This document shows positions 20,548-20,662 of a DNA stretch of 64,000 bases, piece after piece. The notes beneath the pieces are model-generated. The model saw nothing but the letters and a program-made list of their open reading frames with translations. It was not told the origin of the DNA and made no database searches. Within the stretch, counting starts at the first letter, position 1. Every line of letters starts with the position of its first letter. The stretch is from Heptranchias perlo. Its lineage: Eukaryota. The translations under genes were made by a program, and so were the position numbers. Location of the stretch: positions 4,836,001 to 4,900,000 of the forward strand of contig NC_090340.1 of assembly GCF_035084215.1 (NCBI RefSeq), written 5' to 3'.

Positions 20548-20662
20548 CCTCGACAGACCGATTCCCAACCTTTAACTTCTGCCGTTTCCTTTTGGGGTTA
20601 ATGGTGATTCTACTGGGAACCACCATCATTGTCGACCATTTGAAATCAGTCCCCTTTTTAAG
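20548..20662 (+). CDS. Gene B exon 4, transmembrane exon (A)STDRFPTFNFCRFLLGLMVILLGTTIIVDHLKSVPFL
   Basis: Acceptor ccaccAG (alternative in-frame start at 20557), hydrophobic helix with N-x-x-R, strong donor AG|GTAAGA, phase 1-2. Confidence 0.85.

Follow-up and report, generated by a model that had tools for sequence, protein, structure and literature searches.

The transmembrane exon and its gene

The window (the whole 64-kb stretch of Heptranchias perlo DNA that was analysed) carries an intact gene for a short-tailed immunoglobulin (Ig) receptor, downstream of part of an inhibitory-type paralog. The features on which this description rests are the following:

2..1845, + strand: upstream inhibitory-type paralog (L047), with the end of an uncharged transmembrane (TM) exon at 2-46 and tail exons at 644-688, 1448-1564 and approximately 1696-1845 (tblastn of P0002/P0005)
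13018..13072, + strand: leader exon with ATG, 55 nt, phase 1 donor (tblastn of P0003/P0004; donor and open gene model)
13273..13593, + strand: germline-joined VJ-type Ig exon with a G-x-G-T end (Pfam V-set E 3.4e-08; splice sites; an X1 contig joins it to C1)
17534..17815, + strand: single C1-set Ig exon (Pfam C1-set E 2.4e-12; splice sites)
20548..20662, + strand: TM exon, Arg type (reading frame, splice sites, paralog alignment; RefSeq models P0003/P0004)
20574..20585, + strand: N-x-x-R (Arg family-wide; Asn confined to the closest subclade)
20634..20639, + strand: Asp-His pair that follows the helix on its cytoplasmic side, the Asp 17 residues past the Arg (His 16/16; Asp 12/16, Asn 4/16)
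20658..20660, + strand: TTA (Leu) in place of the TAA stop of paralogs L033 and L034, so that the frame continues into the last exon
22736..23424, + strand: last exon, a degenerate homolog of the inhibitory ITIM last exon with the tyrosine lost (DNA alignment; X1 and X2 contigs)

The TM peptide quoted in the initial annotation was confirmed in frame on the + strand, in an exon of 115 nt (20548-20662) that is entered in phase 1, left in phase 2 and flanked by AG (20546-47) and GT (20663-64). The codons lie at 20574-76 for Asn, 20583-85 for Arg and 20634-39 for Asp-His; the position of the Asp-His pair was corrected, as it lies after the helix, 17 residues past the Arg. The combination of N-x-x-R with a 16-residue hydrophobic run occurs once in the six frames of the window, in this exon. 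The uncharged core from Arg to Asp is just 16 residues long (mean Kyte-Doolittle value of 2.71). Since the Arg is part of the most hydrophobic segment of the exon at a length of 19 as well as of 21 residues, we infer that it probably sits in the outer part of the membrane, assuming a full-length helix. RefSeq models P0003 and P0004 contain nearly the same TM exon (one residue different), preceded by a V and a C1 domain.

The leader, V, C1, TM and last exons together give an open model of 280 residues. The predicted stop in the last exon ends at 22805, the remainder being 3' UTR with an approximate 3' end, and no second C1 motif was present within the 64-kb window. The V-C1 joint was found at the predicted sites in one contig of run X1, and 22734-23424 was covered by X1 and X2 contigs with 180 more bases ahead. 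Over the TM bin the depth was 25.9 and 1.64, as expected from about 115 bases of the X1/X2 contigs, which suggests a joint between the TM and last exons; no joint row covering the TM exon was seen in the X1/X2 data. The RNA nature of both runs is a guess, neither being on record as RNA. As the X1/X2 contigs differ by approximately 4%, they need not derive from the window copy and may be the product of a paralog.

The change from TAA to TTA is common to the window copy and its near-identical duplicate, while L033 and L034 keep TAA. This stop loss adds 24 residues from the last exon; they contain no tyrosine, and the predicted class of the tail is therefore unchanged. Having lost the stop of its paralogs, the window copy may be atypical. 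P0003 and P0004 end right after the TM exon, where the window copy runs on. In one respect the annotation is supported, in that the exon belongs to a short-tailed member of a paired family, with a predicted tail free of tyrosine motifs.

Two other architectures were ruled out, namely a rearranging receptor (the J segment is part of the V exon) and a single gene with alternative activating and inhibitory TM exons (the window has no second downstream TM exon). In the upstream paralog L047, the ITIM-like motif of the last exon (window 1696-1845) has Ser for Tyr, and in L046 it has Asn; other tyrosine motifs are retained. The window also contains a 782-codon reading frame at 37027-39372 (- strand), presumably LINE-type and reverse-transcriptase-like, with fragments of the same kind at 8056-9664 (- strand), and a 30-base tandem repeat at 34243-34569.

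A paired receptor family in one cluster

The V exon gave 94 matches in the genome, 93 of them on one contig (C18), and the C1 exon gave 111. We took 80 loci in addition to the window (81 in total), skipping most presumed duplicates of the 3.5-4.0 Mb block. The TM exon was called as Arg-type in 16 loci and as uncharged in 43, leaving 22 without a call within 10 kb; the uncharged-type genes have ITIM tails where these were seen. Look-alike ectodomains occur in one cluster on charged-TM, short-tailed genes and on uncharged-TM, ITIM-bearing genes, which is the layout of paired immunoreceptors. At 93% identity, the window ectodomain is a near-twin of that of L043, a gene with an uncharged TM and tail exons bearing tyrosine motifs.

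Among named proteins, those closest to the window gene are H. perlo RefSeq models (V domains 85-96% identical). P0002 and P0005 have an uncharged TM and tyrosine-motif tails, and P0003 and P0004 have the Arg-type TM. Their automatic names are inconsistent (class I alpha chain-like for P0003/P0004, CD276 or NCR3LG1-like for P0002/P0005), and atlas matches were to generic V/C1 clusters. In P0157 of Callorhinchus milii the TM is of the uncharged type and is accompanied by several tyrosine motifs, which suggests that the family extends back to chimaeras. No account of this VJ-C1-TM family was found in the literature searched, mainly open-access articles; published shark NCR3 genes may overlap with it in part.

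A block of several hundred kb is present twice on C18 (approximately 3.46-4.03 and 4.26-4.86 Mb), with gene-sized pieces up to 99.9% identical. It may be a recent duplication or two assembled haplotypes, and the locus counts may be inflated. On the - strand of C18 the Arg-type TM exon recurs in seven diverged copies (L035-L041), at 3.94, 3.99, 4.78, 4.82, 5.90, 5.92 and 5.96 Mb. Several have spoiled splice sites or polar changes, and no V or C1 exon was present in the five 10-kb stretches checked near them; they are likely orphan fragments carried along by duplications.

Conservation of the Arg-type transmembrane segment

The Arg-type exons of this genome share the signature Arg-x16-[Asp/Asn]-His. 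The His is invariant (16/16), the acidic position holds Asp in 12 exons and Asn in four, and the Arg stands 17 residues ahead of it in 14/16. The two exceptions (L098 and L115) have Gln for Arg, retain Asp-His and are natural adaptor-null candidates. The hydrophobic core of the 16 exons contains no Lys, and a DYT consensus N-terminal to NxxR was found in none of the 16. The form Arg-x16-[D/E]-H was present in 5/5 proteins of other sharks (two species of Chiloscyllium, Heterodontus, Carcharodon and Scyliorhinus); since the Arg-type exons themselves supplied the profile that selected these proteins, the agreement is partly built in. The Arg singled out by the initial annotation is thus conserved among paralogs and in four other shark genera, and the annotation's reading survives its own refuting condition of an unconserved Arg outside the membrane. 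Its use of N-x-x-R as the marker of the class was not supported: an Asn three residues before the Arg was found in only 3/16 exons of this genome and in 1/5 proteins of other species (Chiloscyllium P0019, which has the full motif), and is a trait of a subclade.

An Arg near the N-terminal end is also present in 7 of the 43 uncharged-type exons (L055, L063, L069, L074, L075, L086 and L087), so the Arg alone does not separate the two TM classes. These seven are possible dual-function receptors; L069 combines the early Arg with a tyrosine-motif tail exon.

In a non-signalling, decoy or adhesion member the Arg would be a snorkelling boundary residue with no adaptor bound, and the shortness of the core (16 residues, flanked on either side by charged ones), the Gln in 2/16 and the shared Arg in 7/43 all fit this possibility. 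Against it, the Arg, its spacing and the D/N-H pair are kept in different shark orders and among exons whose DNA identity is no more than 46-57%. Basic residues at a membrane boundary are, as a rule, found on the cytoplasmic side of a TM segment. We consider a non-signalling receptor distinctly improbable.

Origin of the transmembrane module

In a DNA tree of TM exons (15 Arg-type and 28 others, with Arg-type L111 and 15 others omitted), the Arg-type exons form one clade with a support of 100/98. By contrast, the 13 Arg-type genes do not group together in a V+C1 tree of 54 genes (five more excluded as incomplete); they are scattered, require 13 changes, and their monophyly is rejected (p-AU 2.9e-05). 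The TM exons of the window gene and of its near-twin L043 are 37% identical, which is no higher than to unrelated members. The Arg-type TM exons are a single clade and the ectodomains of their genes pair with inhibitory neighbours, so that we read the two TM types as old and the Arg-type TM as a swappable module that did not split off recently from the inhibitory paralogs. The separate clade and the 37% identity also ruled out a recent, KIR-like derivation of the window TM from its inhibitory twin. The annotation's statement that the TM derives from the same exon as those of the inhibitory paralogs consequently survives as remote ancestry at most.

Both TM types are encoded by exons of approximately 114-115 nt that start in phase 1. 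Their comparison scored 0.406, against 0.360 in codon shuffles, and the profile alignment of the two types had a 74% probability. A remote common origin is likely, on measures of a kind that any two TM exons may share to some extent. Firmer evidence comes from the last exon of the window gene, whose DNA aligned to the ITIM exon of L047, the inhibitory-type gene upstream, with a score of 80 (50 ± 6 in shuffles, none of 1000 being as high). Since this exon aligns to an ITIM exon and has lost the tyrosine, the activating lineage probably arose from an ITIM-tailed gene, prior to the split of the shark orders, and later exchanged ectodomains with its inhibitory partners.

Candidate adaptors

An Arg close to the top of the TM segment binds the two aspartates of a dimer, whether zeta-zeta or gamma-gamma, as in TCR-alpha and CD89, and a central Lys is common to DAP12 receptors (PMC13107469). 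The predicted outer Arg of the window receptor fits the first pattern, in line with the annotation's preference for a zeta/gamma-type dimer over DAP12. The same paper describes the role of the Asn in NxxR as untested so far, and NxxR TMs have been described as carrying acidic residues at the C-terminal end (PMC6557307).

Coupling to DAP12 or DAP10, or association with another chain in the manner of a TCR subunit, is an alternative for which the VJ-C1-TM layout of an antigen-receptor chain speaks, together with best PDB matches to antibody chains and UrIg2. The central Lys common to DAP12 receptors (PMC13107469) is lacking; a DAP10 search of the genome, weak in itself, gave no match; and the extracellular spacer after C1 has no Cys, save one in the helix of this subclade. 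This alternative appears very doubtful.

When the genome was searched for TM exons of the zeta/gamma family, two matches emerged, an intact exon on C11 and a broken fragment on C1. The intact exon is that of CD3-zeta, with the TM aspartate; the fragment (L124, G000:C1:111764533-111764583) is short, zeta/gamma TM-like and followed by a stop. Genome queries with the CD3-zeta exon and with lizard and teleost FcR-gamma gave, below E 1, the CD3-zeta locus only. In two protein searches (word-limited, 25 and 32 candidates scored) the chondrichthyan matches were all CD3-zeta and none was FcR-gamma. Likewise, no FcR-gamma was found in the shark sequences screened by Akula et al. 2014, according to that report (PMC4016189). 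Because only CD3-zeta was recovered and that screen had no shark FcR-gamma, CD3-zeta is the likelier and best-supported partner, and coupling to it is predicted from sequence. The FcR-gamma chain named beside CD3-zeta in the initial annotation lost ground on the same evidence.

The receptor could instead be an activating one coupled to a shark FcR-gamma chain that the searches missed. The full N-x-x-R of the window subclade is shared with Chiloscyllium P0019, and Xenopus receptors with NxxR TMs associate with FcR-gamma (PMC2413239). Genome searches of this kind can also overlook genes with small exons: NDUFS2, the intended synteny anchor for FCER1G and a control certainly present in sharks, was not found, and two further control genes gave one match each, which leaves the NDUFS2 miss unreadable. 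Given that CD3-zeta alone was found in the genome and protein searches and that the 2014 screen turned up no FcR-gamma, we regard a missed FcR-gamma chain as unlikely. Two further analyses were uninformative: an ITAM family search of the genome gave nothing but missed the known CD3-zeta gene as well, and complex prediction, pairing this TM segment with the TM dimer of CD3-zeta, scored 0.17 and 0.16 (mark 0.34), which bears neither way.

Proposed explanation

The reading we favour, with a probability of roughly 0.6, is that the window gene encodes a short-tailed VJ-C1 receptor, the likely activating member of a shark paired family. Its outer-membrane Arg would engage the paired aspartates of a dimer from the zeta family, CD3-zeta being the most likely one. 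Repeated exchange, by gene conversion or recombination, would keep the activating ectodomain matched to the inhibitory one, the Arg-type TM meanwhile persisting as an old and separate module.

A broader proposal is considerably more tentative and we would not expect it to hold: the Arg...acidic TM module may be older than FcR-gamma, and sharks may carry it on dozens of germline receptors shaped like TCR chains, coupled to CD3-zeta and swapped repeatedly onto new ectodomains. On this view VJ-C1 receptors that do not rearrange would use the adaptor of the TCR itself. In tetrapods, activating Ig receptors paired with inhibitory ones, like the NxxR/FcR-gamma rule, are already well known; what may be added here is a zeta-coupled TM module that possibly preceded FcR-gamma. 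If sharks have no FcR-gamma, the family offers a direct test of the first adaptor of the Arg-type TM and of a use of zeta by innate receptors that predates FcR-gamma. The family is also a clear case of ectodomains being homogenised across activating/inhibitory pairs with the TM type held constant. The window exon itself is otherwise an ordinary member.

Comparison with known receptor systems

SIRP-alpha and SIRP-beta1 resemble the shark family in having a germline VJ-like V domain, C1 domains and paired inhibitory and activating members, and the automatic RefSeq names of some relatives are SIRP-alpha-like. The SIRP ectodomain is V-C1-C1, whereas the shark family has one C1 between V and TM (window gene, P0002-P0005). 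The activating SIRP member uses a central TM Lys with DAP12, in contrast to the Arg of the shark exons. Human SIRP genes are linked to NSFL1C and PDYN on 20p13. Matches to the SEP domain and to opioid peptides fell on C22, C3 and C42, with gene pairs on C22 and C3 and none on C18, and 0/94 V-exon matches were on C22 or C3. In the PDB comparison SIRP-alpha ranked below antibodies, and the V profile matched generic Ig proteins, SIRP-alpha being absent from the best 60 of 84 matches. The SIRP-like identity given to the ectodomain is consequently not supported: one C1, Arg in place of Lys and a location away from the SEP-domain/opioid-peptide gene pairs all disagree with it.

Mammalian NCR3/NKp30 has a single Ig domain and no C1. 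With NKp30 and shark NCR3 the shark family shares the germline VJ exon with G-x-G and an Arg in the top half of the TM, and it differs in the extra C1 domain and the ITIM partners. NKp30 uses zeta-zeta or zeta-gamma (PMC13107469). It was not among the PDB matches listed for the V exon or profile. MHC class I matches were all on contigs other than C18 (0/43 on C18), which may still be linked to it. RefSeq P0003/P0004 and P0002/P0005 are nearly the same proteins as the window gene and its relatives, with the same two TM types.

The NxxR-TM receptors (LILRA, FCAR/CD89, GPVI, NKp46, OSCAR and Xenopus FcR-like TM1) have the same N-terminal TM Arg, acidic residue at the C-terminal end and short tail, and are likewise paired with uncharged ITIM receptors, giving two TM types in one family (PMC2413239, PMC6557307). 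They have C2-type domains, compared to the VJ and C1 ectodomain of the shark family, in which the Asn is infrequent, the DYT motif is absent, the His is invariant and FcR-gamma was not found. A profile of the 16 Arg-type exons gave only chance matches among PDB sequences, and no NxxR receptor TM was matched. The pattern of ancestry and exchange that is probable for the shark family is that of LILR/PIR and Xenopus FcR-like receptors and not that of KIR (PMC6557307, PMC2413239). By analogy with these systems, the window receptor is predicted to work like an NxxR-type activating receptor.
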